From contig JALEJQ010000008.1 in assembly GCA_022769565.1 (NCBI GenBank), forward strand, positions 15,833-79,832: a stretch of 64,000 bases of DNA, read 5' to 3'. Below, piece by piece: positions 3,630-60,562 of this stretch. The notes beneath the pieces were generated by a model. The model worked only from the letters and a program-made list of their open reading frames with translations. It was not told where the DNA came from and searched no databases. Positions within the stretch are counted from its first letter, which is position 1. The number at the start of each line of letters is the position of its first letter. A program made the translations under genes and the position numbers. The DNA is from Oscillospiraceae bacterium. Lineage in GTDB: Bacteria > Bacillota > Clostridia > Oscillospirales > Ruminococcaceae.

Positions 3630-4502
3630 ATGACAGAGCAAATGACAGGTCTTGTCCTTGAGGGCGGAACGTTCAGAGGAATATTCTCCGCAGGCGTTAT
3701 GGACGCATTTATTGAAGCAGGAGTGGAGTTTCCCTACGTTGTAGGCGTTTCCGCAGGCATTTCCAACGGAGTTTCCTACATTTCAAAGCAGTTCGGCAGA
3801 AATATTGACATTCTTGAAAACTACCGCCTTGACAAGCGTTATATCGGCGCAGGAAACTTTCTCAAATGCAAAAGCTGCTTTGGTCTTGACTTTGTTTTCG
3901 GGGATATTCCCAATGAGCTTATCCCCTTTGACTACGATACATATCACAGGTACAAGGGCAGAGTAAGGGTAGGCGTTACCAACGCAGACACAGGCAGCGC
4001 AGAGTTTATGGACGGGCTTACGGACAGCGAAAACTGGCAGTTTCTCCGTGCCACCTGCGCCATTCCGGGACTTTTTCCGCCCATTGAGATAAACGACGGA
4101 CACTATTACGACGGCGGACTTGCCTGCCCGATTGCGGTAACTCAGGCGATAAAGGACGGCTGCACGAAAAACGTTATTATCCTTACCCAGCCTGAGGGCT
4201 TTGTAAAAAAATGCGGCAAGGGCAACGTTGTTATGAGCCAGCTTATAAAGCATAAATTCCCCAAGGTGGAGATAATGCTTCTTGCCCGTCACAGGATATA
4301 CAACAGGCAGGTGAAGTTCTGCGAGGAGCTTGAACGCAGGGGCAAGGCGCTGATAATCCGCCCCAAGGAACGTCTTGACAGCATGGAAAAGGACACTGCG
4401 AAGCTCCGTGCAACGTGGCAGAGCGGCTACGACGAAGCTATGGGCAGAATGGACGAGATAAAAGCCTTCATCGGGGAAGAATATCATATGTACGAAGTTT
4501 GA
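3630..4502 (+). CDS. patatin-like phospholipase
   Basis: Oxyanion motif GGTFRG and nucleophile elbow GVSAG near the N-terminus; a later DGG-type Asp (YYDGGL). Confidence 0.85.
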   Translation: MTEQMTGLVLEGGTFRGIFSAGVMDAFIEAGVEFPYVVGVSAGISNGVSYISKQFGRNIDILENYRLDKRYIGAGNFLKCKSCFGLDFVFGDIPNELIPFDYDTYHRYKGRVRVGVTNADTGSAEFMDGLTDSENWQFLRATCAIPGLFPPIEINDGHYYDGGLACPIAVTQAIKDGCTKNVIILTQPEGFVKKCGKGNVVMSQLIKHKFPKVEIMLLARHRIYNRQVKFCEELERRGKALIIRPKERLDSMEKDTAKLRATWQSGYDEAMGRMDEIKAFIGEEYHMYEV

Positions 4503-4692
4503 AGTGTTAAGAGTGGAGAGTGAAGTTTTTACTGAATTTGGAATGTGAAGAGTGGAAAGTGGAATTATGGGCGCTTTGCTAAATGAATAATGAATAATTT
4601 TGGTGTTCGCTTCGCTCACGAATTTTAAAATACATCGCCACAGGCGACACCTTAATTATTCATTCTTCACTATTCACTATTCATTATTCATT
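4501..4692. repeat. heptamer-array inverted-repeat element (X family), copy X1
   Basis: Purine-rich 7-nt tandem array at 4501-4567. Then an inverted repeat: AAATGAATAATGAATAATT, core GGTGTTCGCTTCGCTCACGAATTTTAAAATACATCGCCACAGGCGACACC, and a TTAATTATTCATT... arm. Confidence 0.8.
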
Positions 4693-5956: not shown

Positions 5957-6115
5957 TACTAATCTTTGACCGTTCTATAGACAAAGACGGCAAATAGAAC
6001 ACAGCCAATCAAGATAAGCGGCCGCAGCAAGGCTTGGTGCCTTGCAAGGGAGCTTGACGCCGAGTGGCTGGGTTATAGCTGTCGGATTTGTCTATAGGTT
6101 GGTTAACGATTAGTA
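5957..6115 (+). repeat. TACTAAT-family structured element, copy A (candidate cis-acting RNA or MITE)
   Basis: 159 nt with termini TACTAAT/ATTAGTA. Collinear with copies at 21919-22076(-), 36067-36226(+) and 60266-60423(+). Nested stems show compensatory changes between copies. Confidence 0.85.
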
Positions 6116-21381: not shown

Positions 21382-21798
21382 TTATAAGGTCTCTGCATTC
21401 ATATCATAAAGAAGCTCGTTCAGCTCTATTATGCTTTTATGCTCCTTTATCCCGTAAATAATGATGGAATCACGCTTGTCACGGGGGTCAAGGACTGCAA
21501 ACTTTGATATTCTCAGCAACAGCTGTGTTTCGTCCAGGGTTATCCCCATTCCCACAGCTATTGCCGCAATAACATCACGGCTGGGCTTCCGCTGTCCGCT
21601 TATGACCTTATAAACATAATCACCCTGCCCCGAATTTCTGCACACAGACGATATGCTCAGGTGCTTTTGCTCGATATAATTCTGCAGAAATTCGGAACAG
21701 GTCACATTCAAAAACTCAGACTGATACTCGTCAATAAATTTTATTATATCCTTGCTGTCAATAAGATGATGCAGCAATTCGGATGTGGCAATACTCAC
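21382..21798 (-). CDS. XRE-like helix-turn-helix protein
   Basis: GTG at 21798 preceded by AAGGAGAG. LSISSVCRNSGQGDYVYKVISGQRKPSRDVIAAIAVGMG is an HTH_3-like segment. The longer track ORF would cross a terminator and a promoter. Confidence 0.65.
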   Translation of the reverse strand: MSIATSELLHHLIDSKDIIKFIDEYQSEFLNVTCSEFLQNYIEQKHLSISSVCRNSGQGDYVYKVISGQRKPSRDVIAAIAVGMGITLDETQLLLRISKFAVLDPRDKRDSIIIYGIKEHKSIIELNELLYDMNAETL

Positions 21799-21840
21799 AG
21801 CTAACTCTCCTTCGCAAACCAAAATAATGTTGATAATTGT

Positions 21841-21869
21841 ATTATATTGCTTTTTTATGTAAAAATCAA
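21841..21869 (-). promoter_or_regulatory. sigma-A-type promoter (TTGATT-17-TATAAT) for the HTH-kinase cluster
   Basis: Minus-strand hexamers at 21864-21869 and 21841-21846 with a 17-nt spacer. Confidence 0.55.
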
Positions 21870-21874
21870 TAGCG

Positions 21875-21910
21875 TAAAAAAGGCGGAGCAGATACATTAC
21901 CTGCTTCGCC
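21875..21910 (-). terminator. intrinsic terminator of the sulfur operon
   Basis: Minus-strand GGCGAAGCAG-loop-CTGCTCCGCC followed by TTTTTT. Confidence 0.7.
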
Positions 21911-21918
21911 TTTATTAA

Positions 21919-22076
21919 TACTAATAACCAATTAACCTATGGACAAATCCGACGTCTATAATACGCCCATTTTGCGTCAAGCTCCCTTGACAGGCGGCAG
22001 CCTGCCTGCGGTCGCTTTCCTTGACTGGACGTATTCTATCCGCCGTCTTTATCCATAGAACAATTGGTTATTAGTA
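21919..22076 (-). repeat. TACTAAT-family structured element, copy B
   Basis: 158 nt, the reverse complement is collinear with copies A, C and D. Perfect outer stem AACCAATT/AATTGGTT. Confidence 0.85.
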
Positions 22077-22086
22077 TAAAATGCAA

Positions 22087-23781
22087 TTACTTATCCGACC
22101 GGATAATTACCTTTCTGTAGGTATCGAAACGCACCCATTTTTCAAAGAATGCAGAACGTCCGCTTTCGGGTGCTTCGGCGTATTCCTTGAGGAATTCCTG
22201 CACCTCACCGTCAGAGGAAGCCTTTATTTCAAAGCCTCGTCCGTTCAGCAGGGGAACGCCGCCGTAGGTGTATTTCTCCGTGGGGATAATATCCTCTATC
22301 CTTCTGTCACGAACCTTAACGGAAACTCCGTCACGCAAAACGATGATGTCAAAGCTGTCGGGGTATTTGTAGCTTTCGCCCTCGGTGGGTATCTCGTCGC
22401 CAACGGTGTACGCCGTCTTGACAGGCTGGTATTTCAGAACATTAAGGCTGCTTGTGTCATAGTAGAATTCCTCGAAAATGTCACCTCTTGCGGTAAGTCC
22501 GTCCTTTTGGAAGGAAGCCTTTTCCGTGCCGGAGCCGCCCTTTTCGCTTACCTCTTCAACAACGCCGCAGGCAGAAGTCATATTCGTTACACGGTCGATA
22601 AGGATAAACTCGCCCAGTGTCTTGTGGTTGGAAAACAGGTCGGCAGGTATTGCCTCGGCAAAAAGTATGCTGCAAACGGCAATTCCGTTCTTGGAAAGGT
22701 TCTCCGCCTTGATATGCTCCCCTGTGTTTACGTCAACGGCATATTCTATATCAGTAACAACGCCCGGGATAGTCTTTGTTCCCAGCTTTACAAGATAATC
22801 CTTGCCGGGAGTAAGCTCCTCGTCGTCCATCCACAGAACGGACGCCTTTATCTTCTTGTAGACCGCCACCTCTGCACCCTTTGCAAGGACACAGCCTCTT
22901 GAAACGTCCACTTCCTTGTCAAGGGAAATAGTTACAGGCTGTCCCTTGTAAGCGGTATCCACGCTCTTGTCGGTCATAAGTATACCCTTTACAGCCGCTC
23001 TTTCGTTGCTGGGCAGGGCAACTATCTCATCGCCCACGCTTATGCTGCCTGCTTCGATCTGTCCCTGAAAGCCTCTGAATGTGCGGTCGGGGCGGCATAC
23101 CCTCTGGACGGGCATATAAAAACCCTTTTCGCTGTCGTCCGAAGCAATGTCCACCGTTTCAAGGTATTCAAGGAGGGGAACTCCGCTGTACCATTTTATG
23201 TTATCCGACTTTTGGGTAACGTTGTCGCCTTCCGTTGCGGAAAGGGGGATTATCTGCACGTTGTTAAGGGAAAGCTCCTTTTCAAGTGCTTCTATCTGTG
23301 TGCATATCTCCTTGAAGCGTTCCTCGCTGTAGCCTACAAGATCCATTTTGTTTACGGCAAAAACAAAGTATCTTATGCCCATAAGACGGCATATCCTTGC
23401 GTGTCTTCTTGTCTGCACAAGTACGCCCTGTGAAGCGTCCACAAGTATTACCGCAAGGTCGGCAAAGGAAGCGCCGACCGCCATATTTCGTGTGTATTCC
23501 TCATGACCGGGAGTGTCCGCAACGATAAAGCTGCGGTTGTCCGTTGTAAAGTATCTGTACGCAACATCTATGGTGATGCCCTGTTCACGCTCTGCCATAA
23601 GACCGTCAAGAAGAAGGGAGTAGTCTATCTTTCCGCTTCTGCTGCCCACCTTGCTGTCAAGCTCAAGTGCCTTTTCCTGGTCGGCGTAAAGCAGCTTGGA
23701 ATCGTATAAAATATGTCCGATAAGCGTTGATTTGCCGTCGTCCACGCTTCCGCAGGTTATAAATTTAAGCAAGCCTTTCAT
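22087..23781 (-). CDS. cysN: sulfate adenylyltransferase subunit 1 (CysN GTPase) with extra 153-aa C-terminal domain
   Basis: G1 GSVDDGKST, DTPGHEEY and NKMD GTPase motifs. The CysN-type end block FILIDRVTNMTSACGVV is followed by 153 residues with no P-loop. Confidence 0.85.
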   Translation of the reverse strand: MKGLLKFITCGSVDDGKSTLIGHILYDSKLLYADQEKALELDSKVGSRSGKIDYSLLLDGLMAEREQGITIDVAYRYFTTDNRSFIVADTPGHEEYTRNMAVGASFADLAVILVDASQGVLVQTRRHARICRLMGIRYFVFAVNKMDLVGYSEERFKEICTQIEALEKELSLNNVQIIPLSATEGDNVTQKSDNIKWYSGVPLLEYLETVDIASDDSEKGFYMPVQRVCRPDRTFRGFQGQIEAGSISVGDEIVALPSNERAAVKGILMTDKSVDTAYKGQPVTISLDKEVDVSRGCVLAKGAEVAVYKKIKASVLWMDDEELTPGKDYLVKLGTKTIPGVVTDIEYAVDVNTGEHIKAENLSKNGIAVCSILFAEAIPADLFSNHKTLGEFILIDRVTNMTSACGVVEEVSEKGGSGTEKASFQKDGLTARGDIFEEFYYDTSSLNVLKYQPVKTAYTVGDEIPTEGESYKYPDSFDIIVLRDGVSVKVRDRRIEDIIPTEKYTYGGVPLLNGRGFEIKASSDGEVQEFLKEYAEAPESGRSAFFEKWVRFDTYRKVIIRSDK

Positions 23782-36018: not shown

Positions 36019-36064
36019 ACAAAAACAGGCGCAATTCACATTGAATTTCGTGTGAATTGCGCCT
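36019..36064 (-). terminator. intrinsic terminator of the proBA-containing transcription unit
   Basis: Minus-strand 14-bp stem AGGCGCAATTCACA/TGTGAATTGCGCCT followed by GTTTTTGT. Confidence 0.65.
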
Positions 36065-36066
36065 TA

Positions 36067-36226
36067 TATTAATAACCAATTGTTCTATGGATAAAGACGG
36101 CGGATAGAATACGTCCGGTCAAGGAAAGCAACCGCCGCAATGCTTGGTGCCTTGCAAGGGGAGCTTGACGCAGAATGGGCGTATTATAGACGTCGGATTT
36201 GTCTATAGGTTGATATGAACTTAGTA
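36067..36226 (+). repeat. TACTAAT-family structured element, copy C (degenerate termini)
   Basis: The core is near-identical to copy B. The left terminus is TATTAAT and the right outer stem is lost. It abuts the stop codon at 36227-36229. Confidence 0.8.
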
Positions 36227-38496: not shown

Positions 38497-38596
38497 TACT
38501 AATAACCAATTAAAAACTGTACAAAAAATCGAGCATAATCTTAGCTTTATGGATTATGCAAAGATTTTTTGTCTACAGCTTTATTGGTTATTAGTA
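38497..38596. repeat. TACTAAT-family short variant (E)
   Basis: The termini TACTAATAACCAAT/ATTGGTTATTAGTA match copy B, but the interior is a different 70-nt hairpin. Confidence 0.75.
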
Positions 38597-44751: not shown

Positions 44752-44842
44752 AACTATACAAACTCCCTGTTTTTTCATCAAATTTCAAACACAAATTTCA
44801 TTATAGCATCTTACGCTCTTTCAGGCAATATACAAAATGACG

Positions 44843-45047
44843 AAAAAAGTTTGAAGTGTGAAGAGTGGAGAGTGAAGTTTTTTTCGGAATGTGAAATGTG
44901 GAAAGTTGAAAGTGGAATTAATGTGTCGGCTTCGCCGATGATTTTAAAATCCGCGAGCGCAGCGAACACCATAATTCTTCATTCCACTTTTCACTTTCCA
45001 CATTCAATAAAACTCCACTCTCCACTCTCCACTCTTCAAACTTTTTT
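44843..45047. repeat. X-family heptamer-array inverted repeat, copy X4
   Basis: About 75-nt arms built from degenerate 7-nt units (GAAGTGT GAAGAGT GGAGAGT ... GGAATGT GAAATGT GGAAAGT) and their complements, flanking the conserved core in reverse orientation. Confidence 0.85.
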
Positions 45048-45825: not shown

Positions 45826-46040
45826 AATGAATAGAGATTAGTGGATAGTGAATAATTAAGGTATCGCCTGCGGCAATGTATTTAAGGCAACACCGTACAA
45901 AGACCGCCTTTCGGATTTGTGCGGTATTTCCTTAAGATCCGTGAGCGCAGCGAACACCTTAATTATTCATTTTTCATTATTCATTATTCATTTAGCGCAG
46001 CACCTATGTTCATTTAGCCAAACGCCTCTAATCTCTAATT
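45826..46040. repeat. X-family inverted repeat with nested insertion, copy X5
   Basis: AATGAAT/AGTGAAT-type arms. The core is split at its ATTTTAAAAT centre by an extra hairpin (ACCGTACAAA...TTTGTGCGGT). Confidence 0.8.
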
Positions 46041-50363: not shown

Positions 50364-50377
50364 ACAGAATAAAATAA

Positions 50378-50541
50378 GGGAACCTCTAAAAACCTCCTTC
50401 ACGGCAAATTTTCTATGACTTTGTTCATCTGCTGCGTTATCAAACCTTGTAATACATCAAGTATTACTGCGGTTTGATGCCTTGCAGCTAAACAAAGTCA
50501 TGGACGAAAATTTGCTCGTGTCCCGGTTTTTAGAGAACCCC
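50378..50541 (+). repeat. rod-like hairpin repeat, copy 2
   Basis: Collinear with 1920-2082. Same termini and apex, with compensated arm differences. Flanked by ATAA on both sides. Confidence 0.85.
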
Positions 50542-50681
50542 ATAAAACAAACTGTCAGACACGACAGCGGTACATCCTCTGCCGTGTCTGCAGATTTTCA
50601 CAAAAAGCGACGTTTTTTTGTCTGCCGTTAATTTGCACAGAAAAACGCCGTTTTTTTTTATACCCTATTTCAAAAAGCCCC

Positions 50682-58152: not shown

Positions 58153-60137
58153 ACGAGCTTAAAAGAGTTTTCGGCAGGAAAATAATAATGCTGTCGGTCA
58201 TACTTGTACTGCTGAATTTCATTCTGTTTACCCTTTCCTGCGACAGCGGAAGAGATATAACGGCAGTAGGCGATGAACTTGCGGAATACATATCATCGTA
58301 CAATCAGACTGTAGAAAGCACCGTAAAGCAAAGCCGTGAGCTGAGTATGCTGAATATTTACAAGGACGGCTTCGGTTCAAAAAATATCGAAAAGACGGCG
58401 GAGGATTTTTCCGCATTATCGGATATTGCGCCGGCATACGGCGATAACCGGGGAATTGTGGTATTATCCGACTATCATATGACCGACCTTATTTTTGCGG
58501 CATTTATGATAATCATTTCGGCGGTGCTTCTTGCGGAACGCAGAAACGGTCTTGTAAACCTTATACGCAGCACATCGGGAGGACGGACAAGGCTTTATTT
58601 TTCAAGGATAGGTGTGCTTGTCATTTCCGCTGTGAGCGGAGCAGTTTTGCTGTACGGCGGAAACTATCTCGGAGCAGTTCTCACATTCGGAGCTATGGGC
58701 ATACCAAGAGCTATACAGTCCGTTCCCGAATTTTCGATGTGTTCATACCGCATTTCAGTGGGAGATTATCTTATCTGTTCGGCAGGTGTGAGGATACTTG
58801 CGGCTTTAACGGCGTCTTTGCTGTTTTTCACGCTGATAAGTCTGCTTGGAACCGTGGGAGCGTATCTTTTCGGCGGTATATTTGCGGCTGTGCAGGTGCT
58901 GTTTTATCTGCTTATCCCGTCGGTATCGTCGCTGAATGTGCTGAAATTTATGAATATATTTGCTGCTGTAAAAGCAGATGATTATTTCAGAGTGTATCAA
59001 AATCTGAACATATTTGGCAGACCTGTTTCCATACATTATGCAGGAGTGAGCTTCTGCGTTTCGGTTTTCCTTATTTGCCTTGTTTCGGGGATATTCATTC
59101 ACGGAAAAATGTATCTGAAAAGGGAGCATTTCGCCGAAAGTATACTTCTTGCCGTCCGAAAGTTCACCGAAAAGCATTCGATATGCAGGACTCTTTTCGG
59201 CTGGGAGGGCTACAAACTCATTATACGTCAATACGGCGGAATAATTGTCATATGTGCATTTTTAGCTGCATATTCGCAAGCTGTGAAGTATGATTATTTC
59301 TATCCGCAGAACCCTTATGAGCTTGAATGGTACGCAAAATATGAGGGCGAAATGACGGCAGAAAAGCTCAGTGATATGGAAACACAAAAATCAAGGCTTG
59401 AACGGTCAATTGACCTGTTTCAGAGCAGACTTGACAAGATAATGTCAGAAAAGCCCGTTGACTGGAACACATGGGGCAAGATAAAAGCCTTTCTTGACGA
59501 GGCACATGCTAAATATGATACGCTTCTGCCAATAATTGAAAACGTCCGCAGCGGTATGGAATACACAGCACGGACGGGAAATTCTGTCAGTCTTATTAAG
59601 CCATATTCATACGACCTCTTGTTCAAGCGAGATACAAAGACTGTTCAAAGGAACTCTTTATTTATCCTTATAGGCATCATCTGCGCTGTATCGGGAGTGT
59701 ATTCCTTTGAACGGCAAAACCGCATGGACGGAACGCTTCGCTCTGCATACAGAGGACGGACGGCACTTGACCTTTGCAAGATAGTATGGGTAGTTCTGCT
59801 CTGTGCTGTATTATGTGCGGCTGTCCACTCGATCCAGCTTATCCGAATTGATATGCAGCTGGGACTAAGCGGCCTTGACGCTCCCGTACAAAGTCTTGAT
59901 TTTATGAGGAACTATTCGGCTTATATGACGATAAAACAGTATATTATCGTCAAATTTGCCGCAAGAGCGTCTGCTGCCTGCGTTGTTGGTCTGGTATGTG
60001 TGCTTATCAGCAGGCTGTGCAGCGATACTTCTTCATCAATGGGGATATGTGGATTTGTGACGGCGGCTTCCTGCTTTATTCCGCAAGCCGTTTCCGGGGC
60101 GGAGTGGGTAAGTGCTTTGTTCTGGATAGGAAGCTGA
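58149..60137 (+). CDS. large polytopic membrane protein, putative ABC-2-type permease partner
   Basis: 4-nt overlap with the ATPase gene. Two blocks of TM helices are separated by a soluble insert of about 120 aa. Confidence 0.65.
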   Translation: MNELKRVFGRKIIMLSVILVLLNFILFTLSCDSGRDITAVGDELAEYISSYNQTVESTVKQSRELSMLNIYKDGFGSKNIEKTAEDFSALSDIAPAYGDNRGIVVLSDYHMTDLIFAAFMIIISAVLLAERRNGLVNLIRSTSGGRTRLYFSRIGVLVISAVSGAVLLYGGNYLGAVLTFGAMGIPRAIQSVPEFSMCSYRISVGDYLICSAGVRILAALTASLLFFTLISLLGTVGAYLFGGIFAAVQVLFYLLIPSVSSLNVLKFMNIFAAVKADDYFRVYQNLNIFGRPVSIHYAGVSFCVSVFLICLVSGIFIHGKMYLKREHFAESILLAVRKFTEKHSICRTLFGWEGYKLIIRQYGGIIVICAFLAAYSQAVKYDYFYPQNPYELEWYAKYEGEMTAEKLSDMETQKSRLERSIDLFQSRLDKIMSEKPVDWNTWGKIKAFLDEAHAKYDTLLPIIENVRSGMEYTARTGNSVSLIKPYSYDLLFKRDTKTVQRNSLFILIGIICAVSGVYSFERQNRMDGTLRSAYRGRTALDLCKIVWVVLLCAVLCAAVHSIQLIRIDMQLGLSGLDAPVQSLDFMRNYSAYMTIKQYIIVKFAARASAACVVGLVCVLISRLCSDTSSSMGICGFVTAASCFIPQAVSGAEWVSALFWIGS

Positions 60138-60265
60138 AACACTCAAAGCTGATACATATTTTTAACCAACCTATAGATAATACTAATAATAATAAAAAAC
60201 GGGAAAAAATCTGCGCCGAAATCCATTATACGCAAGATTATCGGCTTGATTTTTTTCATATTTTA

Positions 60266-60423
60266 TACTAATCCTCATTTGTTCGGTGGATAAAGTTGGT
60301 AGATAGAATTGCTCCAATCAAGGAAAGCGACCACAGGCGTGCTGTCGCACGGCAAGGAAGCTTGACGACGAGTGGTGCAATTATAGCTGCCAAATTTATC
60401 TACAGGTTAAATGAGGATTAGTA
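60266..60423 (+). repeat. TACTAAT-family structured element, copy D
   Basis: 158 nt. The most divergent copy, yet every stem is maintained by compensatory substitutions (for example CCTCATTT/AAATGAGG). Confidence 0.85.
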
Positions 60424-60454
60424 TTAAATGGTGTTTAGTATAAAACCTCACCAA

Positions 60455-60486
60455 GGATTTGTCTATAGGTTGGTTTAGAATTAGTA
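60455..60486 (+). repeat. TACTAAT-family solo right-end fragment
   Basis: GGATTTGTCTATAGGTTGGTTTAGAATTAGTA matches the right arm only. An inverted right-end remnant is also present at 60164-60187. Confidence 0.6.
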
Positions 60487-60529
60487 TGAGGACATTCTGA
60501 AAAACGGCTGAAACGTATTATAGTATTAT

Positions 60530-60562
60530 GCTGTGATGCCTTTTCTCACGGCGGATTTTTTT
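60530..60562 (+). terminator. intrinsic terminator of the ABC operon
   Basis: GCTGTGA-loop-TCACGGC followed by GGATTTTTTT. Confidence 0.55.

Follow-up and report, generated by a model that had tools for sequence, protein, structure and literature searches.

A hairpin transposable element between cysN and the terminator of a sulfur operon, probably placed by target preference

We analysed a 64,000-nt stretch of an Oscillospiraceae bacterium genome (GenBank assembly GCA_022769565.1, contig JALEJQ010000008.1, positions 15,833 to 79,832), hereafter the window, and focused on copy B, a repeated hairpin element that lies between the stop codon of cysN, the last gene of a sulfur operon, and the intrinsic terminator of that operon. 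Our reading, to which we assign a probability of roughly 80%, is that copy B arose when a non-autonomous miniature inverted-repeat transposable element (MITE) of the hairpin type inserted here, and that a landing preference, not a role in the mRNA, explains its position. Its family is present in many copies, has been active recently, is confined to one genus and is related to insertion sequences (IS) of the IS630 type. Read in this way, the sequence after cysN is selfish DNA whose arrangement gives no sign of a regulatory part, and repeat is the appropriate annotation for it. The finding is ordinary except for the non-canonical length of the target duplication.

Anatomy of the insertion after cysN

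All features of this locus lie on the minus strand. The cysN open reading frame (ORF; 22087-23781) encodes a CysN-like protein of 564 amino acids with matches to the Pfam domains GTP_EFTU (3e-44) and GTP-eEF1A_C, and a CysD-like PAPS_reduct ORF is located directly upstream. The gene ends with the codons for R, S, D and K, followed by the stop codon TAA (22087-22089). A 10-nt spacer (22086-22077, TTGCATTTTA) separates this stop from copy B, and its last three nucleotides, TTA (22077-22079), form the left target-site duplication (TSD); that the whole family duplicates T-N-A is backed by the 22 empty sites described below. Copy B itself, delimited by alignment, repeat counts and folding, extends for 158 nt (21919-22076) from TACTAAT to ATTAGTA and is in the sense orientation to cysN. 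In the alignment of copies, its 5' terminal inverted-repeat arm (22042-22076, beginning TACTAATAACCAATTGTTCTATGGATAAAGACGG) resembles the ends of the IS630-family IS of the genus described below, and the reverse complement of its 3' arm (21919-21953), TACTAATAACCAATTAACCTATGGACAAATCCGACG, matches the right end of that IS at 29 of 36 positions. The right TTA duplication (21916-21918) opens the 8 nt, TTA plus ATAAA (21918-21911, TTAATAAA), that lead to the terminator (21875-21910), a GC-rich hairpin with a T-run identified by folding and terminator scans. A scan of the cysN 3' end placed the hairpin at 21905-21887 with the tail CCGCCTTTTT, and a separate hairpin-plus-T-run scan gave it -18.7 kcal/mol. 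Reading the minus strand from 21700 to 22300 confirmed exactly the coordinates, strand and two distances that the first-pass annotation had given for copy B, as well as its sense placement within the presumed 3' untranslated region (UTR) of cysN.

The insertion point of copy B is the A/T tract TTTTA|ATAAA at the foot of the terminator hairpin, with the A-tract side of the operon terminator as the source of this target. Removal of copy B and one TTA in silico yielded TAAGTAATTGCATTTTAATAAAGGCGAAGCAGGTAATGTATCTGCTCCGCCTTTTTT, in which an ordinary stop codon and a terminator are separated by 17 nt; for the empty site, the prediction is TAAGTAATTGCATTTTAATAAAGGCGAAGCAGG. Folded as RNA, the copy B region reached -108.5 kcal/mol with a z-score of -12, and copy B alone reached -86.2 kcal/mol.

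A dispersed family with the features of a MITE

The terminal 15-mer of the element has five matches in the window against 0.14 expected, so it is a repeat far beyond chance, and four full-length copies (A-D) align end to end, all with TTA on both sides. We built a profile from these four copies and used nhmmer to search the genome under study (2.57 Mb in 109 contigs). The search returned 145 loci, about 117 of them strong and 37 of the strong ones at contig ends, corresponding to about 100 copies. Many contigs break off within a copy, and the large number of copies at contig ends indicates that the family accounts for the fragmentation of this assembly into 109 contigs.

The element proper measures 158-160 nt, and longer forms of 175-240 nt have central insertions. 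All copies end in TACTAA(T/G)...(A/C)TTAGTA, with arms that pair over the full length, and identity to the nearest neighbour among the copies is mostly 97-99.4%. The element has no coding capacity: it contains no ORF of at least 60 amino acids and is too short for a transposase. Of the genomes that we searched, 15 of 18 from the same genus contain the family, whereas all 22 from other genera of the family and order gave no match. An exact core 16-mer also matched gut metagenome-assembled genomes named Huintestinicola sp., uncultured Ruminococcus sp. and Oscillospiraceae bacterium. The family thus combines the features by which MITEs are recognised, namely small non-coding size, terminal inverted repeats, a TSD, dispersed polymorphic copies and a coding element with matching ends.

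Empty sites and a 3-bp target duplication

Perfect 3-bp T-N-A direct repeats flank 35 of 47 copies (TTA 23, TAA 7, TCA 4 and TGA 1). For 46 copies with unique flanks, we joined the flanks in silico, keeping one TNA, and searched five same-genus genomes with the joined sequences. In a sister species whose cysN is 95% identical, 22 of the 46 constructs aligned unbroken across the junction with 91-99% identity, and at each of these loci the sister carries a single TNA where the genome under study has TNA-[element]-TNA. One insertion is common to both genomes, at 99.4% identity. The family is mobile, and the 22 empty sites together with the shared insertion indicate that it was active before and after the split of the two species.

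The empty sites also ruled out duplication of TA as a model for the target. Two empty TCA sites have no TA nearby, and the empty allele seen at a TAA site is five bases shorter than it would be under the TA model. These alleles demonstrate a 3-bp TNA duplication, not the canonical IS630/Tc1 duplication of TA.

Target preference and genome-wide placement

We classified the strong copies by their neighbours, using a non-overlapping longest-ORF caller, not a trained gene finder (2249 ORFs, 87% coding), and a simple hairpin-plus-T-run scan of the element flanks for terminators. Copies occur between convergent genes (27), between tandem genes in antisense (22) or sense (14) orientation, and between divergent genes (10). 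Within 300 nt, 81 gene 3' ends face an element, 33 in the sense and 48 in the antisense orientation (p about 0.1 against equality, normal approximation), so the family has no genome-wide sense bias. Among the sense adjacencies, a terminator was detected only after the element in 3, only between stop codon and element in 11 and on both sides in 2; the corresponding antisense numbers are 12, 14 and 0. No terminator was detected at the other 39 (17 sense and 22 antisense).

The arrangement of copy B, sense and between stop codon and terminator, is a small minority of the family, with only 3-5 of the 81 adjacencies. The first-pass annotation had seen consistent sense insertion in such gaps and had taken it to imply either selection or an insertion preference. 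The consistency, and with it the argument for selection, fails genome-wide. Copies are at least as common outside transcription units as inside, a result that the annotation itself had named as contradicting its claim: 25-27 lie beyond the terminator versus 15-17 before it, and 10 are located between divergent genes. Its alternative of an insertion preference proved essentially right, the preferred site being T-N-A in a T-rich or AT-rich motif that is common beside stop codons and terminator A/T tracts.

The target motif consists of T at positions -2 and -1 (20 of 33 sites each), a T-T-A core, and, on the far side, T at +1 followed by A at +2 (20 of 33). This motif is asymmetric and thereby fixes the orientation of the element relative to T-tracts and stop codons. 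Consistent with this, the 3' end of the element faces a converging gene end in 63 cases versus 30, a bias that the asymmetric target explains, and in 13-15 of these the target duplication coincides with the stop codon of the facing gene, since TTA on the strand of the element reads TAA on that of the gene. About a quarter of the copies have a terminator hairpin no more than 5 nt away; it can be on either side, and the element can have either orientation. Some 58-63% of matching target motifs lie inside genes, but almost no copies do, indicating that selection removes genic insertions.

Together, target preference and purifying selection account for the position of copy B after cysN. In the mechanism we propose, the enzyme would prefer T-rich-TTA-(T/A)A sites, which are common at the flanks of stop codons and terminators, and selection would purge insertions in genes and promoters. 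For copy B, the target would have been the TTA in ...TAAGTAATTGCATTTTA|ATAAAGGCG..., at a distance of five bases from the stem of the terminator.

The locus in the sister species

In the sister species, cysN is directly followed by a different terminator, with no element. This position in the sister lacks the block from about 21876 to about 36020, which comprises the terminator, copy B and the sulfur operon. The genes on either side of the block are direct neighbours there (contig C132 of the sister), the downstream one adjoining the copy C site, and the sister carries its sulfur operon at 96.6% identity in another context (its contig C69). We also considered a composite transposon, in which the inverted copies B and C would bracket the 14-kb sulfur operon. 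This was rejected because the boundaries of the indel, about 21876 and about 36020, do not fall at the ends of the MITEs, and copy C inserted separately, beside another terminator.

A candidate parent element

A Pfam search revealed DDE_3 genes in 9 of 19 genomes of the genus. We also searched the genus genomes for long elements bounded by TACTAA ends. Most matches were pairs of separate MITEs, and the sole informative one was a 1129-bp IS630-like IS in a congener (G002), with the ends TACTAAACACCATTTAAAAGCAGGATAAAA and TACTAAACACCAATTAAACTATAGACAAAATCGA and TTA on each side. This IS is present in four members of the genus (G002, G013, G014 and the sister species, G003); its ends read TACTAAACACCA(T/A)TTAAA... 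and are flanked by TNA. It codes for a helix-turn-helix (HTH) ORF and a DDE_3 ORF (Pfam 9e-25). In both copies that we read, at 1392-2520 of L170 (G002:C3) and 210-1337 of L169 (G003:C71), the HTH and DDE_3 ORFs are in different frames. The presence of split frames in two species suggests programmed frameshifting rather than decay.

The IS and the MITE have ends of about 35 nt in common, as the match to the 3' arm of copy B illustrates, and the right end of the IS matches a sister MITE family of 100 nt about equally well. From these ends we concluded that the focal family is probably an IS630-derived MITE whose enzyme would integrate at TNA. The shared ends and the shared TNA flanks make an IS630-type enzyme the most likely mobiliser of the family. 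Acting in trans, such a DDE transposase would bind the inverted ends of about 35 bp, excise the element and insert it at T-N-A through cuts staggered by 3 nt, and repair would then duplicate the TNA.

A further congener (G017) carries a full focal-family MITE at 1055-1211 of L168 (G017:C132), in the place expected for the N-terminal portion of another, different transposase gene of the IS630 type. The rest of that frame has an internal stop, so that one mobile element is disrupted by another.

Evidence against the insertion reading and a possible role in RNA

Several observations weigh against our reading. At the cysN locus, metagenome pattern scans and exact-protein look-ups found no same-species empty allele, and the sister species supplies none either, its operon being in another context. 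The assembly under study contains no DDE_3 gene and no blastn trace of the 1129-bp IS, so the mobiliser would have to lie in an unassembled part, have been lost or come from elsewhere. The TNA duplication of 3 bp departs from the 2-bp TA experimentally shown for IS630 and ISY100 (PMC2170065). The structure of the hairpin raises a further difficulty. We examined covariation in 46 diverse copies taken from several species. Of the 54 pairs in their consensus hairpin, 25 show at least two Watson-Crick types, including interior pairs beyond the ends of about 35 bp shared with the IS630-like element. In addition, the sense strand is the more stable one in all 44 copies compared from the genome under study, by a mean of about 18 kcal/mol. 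Such paired variation and strand asymmetry could reflect a constraint at the level of single strands or RNA, for which a purely selfish element would have no need.

The structural features would also be expected from common descent and palindrome-correcting template switching. Compensatory change in quasi-palindromes can come from template-switch repair without selection. Canonical pairs fill 96.3% of the cells of the covariation set on the sense strand versus 91.6% on the antisense strand, and most of the strand asymmetry comes from two invariant G-T pairs that flank a T-T mismatch and contribute 90 of the 140 G-U cells. This GTT/GTT motif is a difference between the left and right ends that is seen in the candidate parent IS too.

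The best-surviving alternative, improbable in our judgement, is that the sulfur operon has recruited copy B as an RNA module of its 3' UTR. Its sense hairpin would shield the 3' end of the mRNA from exonucleases, or an RNase III cut would free a stable small RNA or set the half-life of the operon mRNA. The sense placement of copy B inside the stop-to-terminator gap agrees with this idea, as do its fold (-86 kcal/mol sense versus -55 antisense), the greater sense stability in all 44 copies and the compensatory variation along the whole stem, which includes the interior beyond the 35 bp or so that the transposase presumably binds. Effects of RNase III and RNase E at MITE hairpins are also documented (PMC10969869), and some effect of copy B on the cysN mRNA is plausible on these grounds. 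Set against this are the lack of a genome-wide sense bias (33 of the facing 3' ends sense versus 48 antisense, and 3-5 of 81 placed like copy B, with many copies beyond terminators or between divergent genes) and the element-free cysN of the closest species. The strand asymmetry, moreover, is inherited by all copies from a common ancestor and resides largely in the two G-T pairs, and compensatory change is attainable without selection. A sequence scan also found no promoter-like site within copy B.

On our main reading, the operon transcript presumably runs through copy B, so that the cysN mRNA would carry it as a passenger hairpin in its 3' UTR. We saw no sign of a selected function for copy B in the operon mRNA, and we infer that it is neutral there.

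A broader proposal is no more convincing. It holds that the hairpin is not just a consequence of the inverted ends but is kept by a strand-specific constraint on RNA or single-stranded DNA, as the more stable sense strand of every copy, the two invariant G-T pairs and the compensatory changes along the stem might suggest. In that case, sense copies would reset host mRNA stability through RNase III or an exonuclease barrier. As a separate point, the parent enzyme would belong to a widespread, undescribed subgroup of IS630 that integrates at TNA with a stagger of 3 nt. We regard this proposal as improbable.

Other candidate mobilisers

Slightly less probable still is mobilisation by an IS5-family (IS1031-type) or PIF/Harbinger-like transposase instead of an IS630-type one. 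A 3-bp T-N-A duplication (TAA or TTA) is a hallmark of the IS1031-type group of the IS5 family and of PIF/Harbinger elements, and the focal family has a TNA TSD. A Pfam search of the genome under study for DDE_Tnp_1, DDE_Tnp_4, DDE_3 and rve revealed two IS5-family copies (on contigs C66 and C49) and an IS4-like fragment, with neither DDE_3 nor rve (IS3/IS30-type) transposases. A third MITE family has the TACTAAG tip of the focal family and an inner repeat like the IS5-like end TTA(A/G)GGAAACGCTGA(A/T)TAAA. The focal ends, however, match the IS5-like end of the genus over only about 6 nt (the first 6-7), in contrast to about 35 nt of the IS630-like IS, and the IS630-like copies themselves have TNA flanks. 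The IS5-like elements look like members of the IS5 subgroup (flanks TTAA, TTAG or CTAA), are single-copy and occur in 5 of 19 genomes. DDE_Tnp_1_2, the domain of the IS1031/IS427 type, is absent from the genome under study and sparse in the genus. The IS5-like elements of the genome under study were rejected as the parent, their ends matching only the different, third MITE family.

The two IS5-family copies (DDE_Tnp_1; C66:4001-5223 and C49:11817-13003) share 85% identity and have IS5-like ends, TTAGGGAAACGCTGA(A/T)TAAA; the C49 transposase is short by about 10 residues. The third MITE family starts with TACTAAGGAAACGCTGATTAATACG and combines the TACTAAG tip and TNA flanks of the focal family with an inner repeat like that of the IS5-family IS of the genus. 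In the genome under study it was located at C9:6146, C44:13124, C55:31531 and C56:3010. Matches to its end motif (one mismatch, both strands) numbered 32-64 in four congeners (G011, G015, G018 and G017) and only 8 here. An apparent 40-nt inverted repeat between contigs C83 and C84 turned out to be merely a duplicated coding segment.

It is very improbable that the family is not mobile DNA at all but a REP-like or structured non-coding RNA gene family kept in place, since its strongly conserved, covarying structure and the lack of any Rfam 15 match at the gathering score across the window, although compatible with an undescribed RNA, stand against 22 clean presence/absence sites with a single TNA in the empty allele, copies nested in one another, one copy inside an IS630 transposase gene of a congener, internally deleted derivatives of 43 and 100 nt, and a coding IS with the same ends.

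Comparison with known elements

The insertion of a non-autonomous MITE has close parallels. RUP of Streptococcus pneumoniae is a MITE of about 107 bp attributed to IS630-Spn1 (review PMC10969869). Like the focal element, it is a small non-coding hairpin, high in copy number and intergenic, with terminal repeats shared with an IS630-family IS that supplies transposase in trans, and with copies clustered or nested with other repeats (PMC10969869). The element described here differs in its length of 158-159 nt, its duplication of TNA instead of TA and its confinement to one gut Oscillospiraceae genus (Huintestinicola-like), and its cognate IS is absent from the assembly.

The 1129-bp IS resembles IS630 and ISY100 in its helix-turn-helix domains, its DDE_3 catalytic domain and the inverted ends of about 30-35 bp that it shares with the MITE. 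It differs in the 3-bp TNA duplication and in having its transposase in two frames. These TNA-duplicating IS630-type elements suggest that one branch of the IS630-Tc1-mariner group integrates with a geometry of its own.

Correia elements in Neisseria and ERIC elements in Yersinia are examples of MITEs that act on RNA: RNase III can cut the long stems of Correia transcripts, and ERIC hairpins expose RNase E sites (PMC10969869). Correia elements (CREE/NEMIS) are likewise hairpin MITEs of about 100-160 bp with about 100 or more copies per genome, and their frequent co-transcription with neighbouring genes and the RNase III cleavage of their stems provide a precedent for the RNA idea (PMC10969869). 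They differ in their TA duplication and their promoter and IHF sites, and share no sequence with the focal element. With about 100 near-identical, strongly folding copies, many beside stop codons or terminators, this uncultured gut genus offers a natural test bed for the effects of hairpin MITEs on mRNA ends.

Other copies and repeats in the window

The remaining full-length copies in the window all lie on the plus strand. Copy A (5957-6115, 159 nt, TTA/TTA) was identified by alignment and sequence reading. Copy C (36067-36226, 160 nt, TTA/TTA) adjoins a terminator hairpin at 36022-36066 and is a chimera, as is a copy elsewhere in the genome (C77:11149-11318). In both, the 5' and 3' arms belong to different subfamilies and the outer stem is unpaired, which points to recombination between copies.

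Copy D (60266-60423, 158 nt, TTA/TTA) had been described as having the same arrangement as copy B, which is true only in a loose sense. The stop codon at 60137 was correctly placed, but copy D is nested in a related, shorter MITE within a fragment cluster at 60149-60490. The terminator scan did not call the proposed terminator (60530-60562), whose weak stem has 7 bp and encloses a loop of 9 nt. The cluster lies between convergent genes and is a nest of mobile-element pieces: copy D sits at a TTA inside a shorter element with TACTAA(A/T) ends, accompanied by a truncated 3' half of a focal-family copy (60455-60487) and an arm fragment (60149-60180).

A member of the 100-nt sister MITE family is located at 38497-38596 (plus strand) and has the terminal TACTAATAACCAATT in common with the focal family. 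About 20 copies of this sister family are dispersed in the genome, and their terminal 16 nt, the same as in the focal family, are also carried by mini-derivatives of about 43 nt that consist of the ends only, with the interior deleted. Loci with the 100-nt or 43-nt forms include C4:1458, C15:15301, C97:389 and C100:7200.

Two unrelated repeat families were also observed in the window. One is a pair of hairpins of about 165 nt with 91-93% identity (1916-2086 and 50374-50545), and the other comprises palindromes of heptamer arrays (GAAGTGT/AATGAAT-like) at 4487-4685, 44839-45047 and 45826-46007. Intergenic repeats are unusually abundant in this genome.

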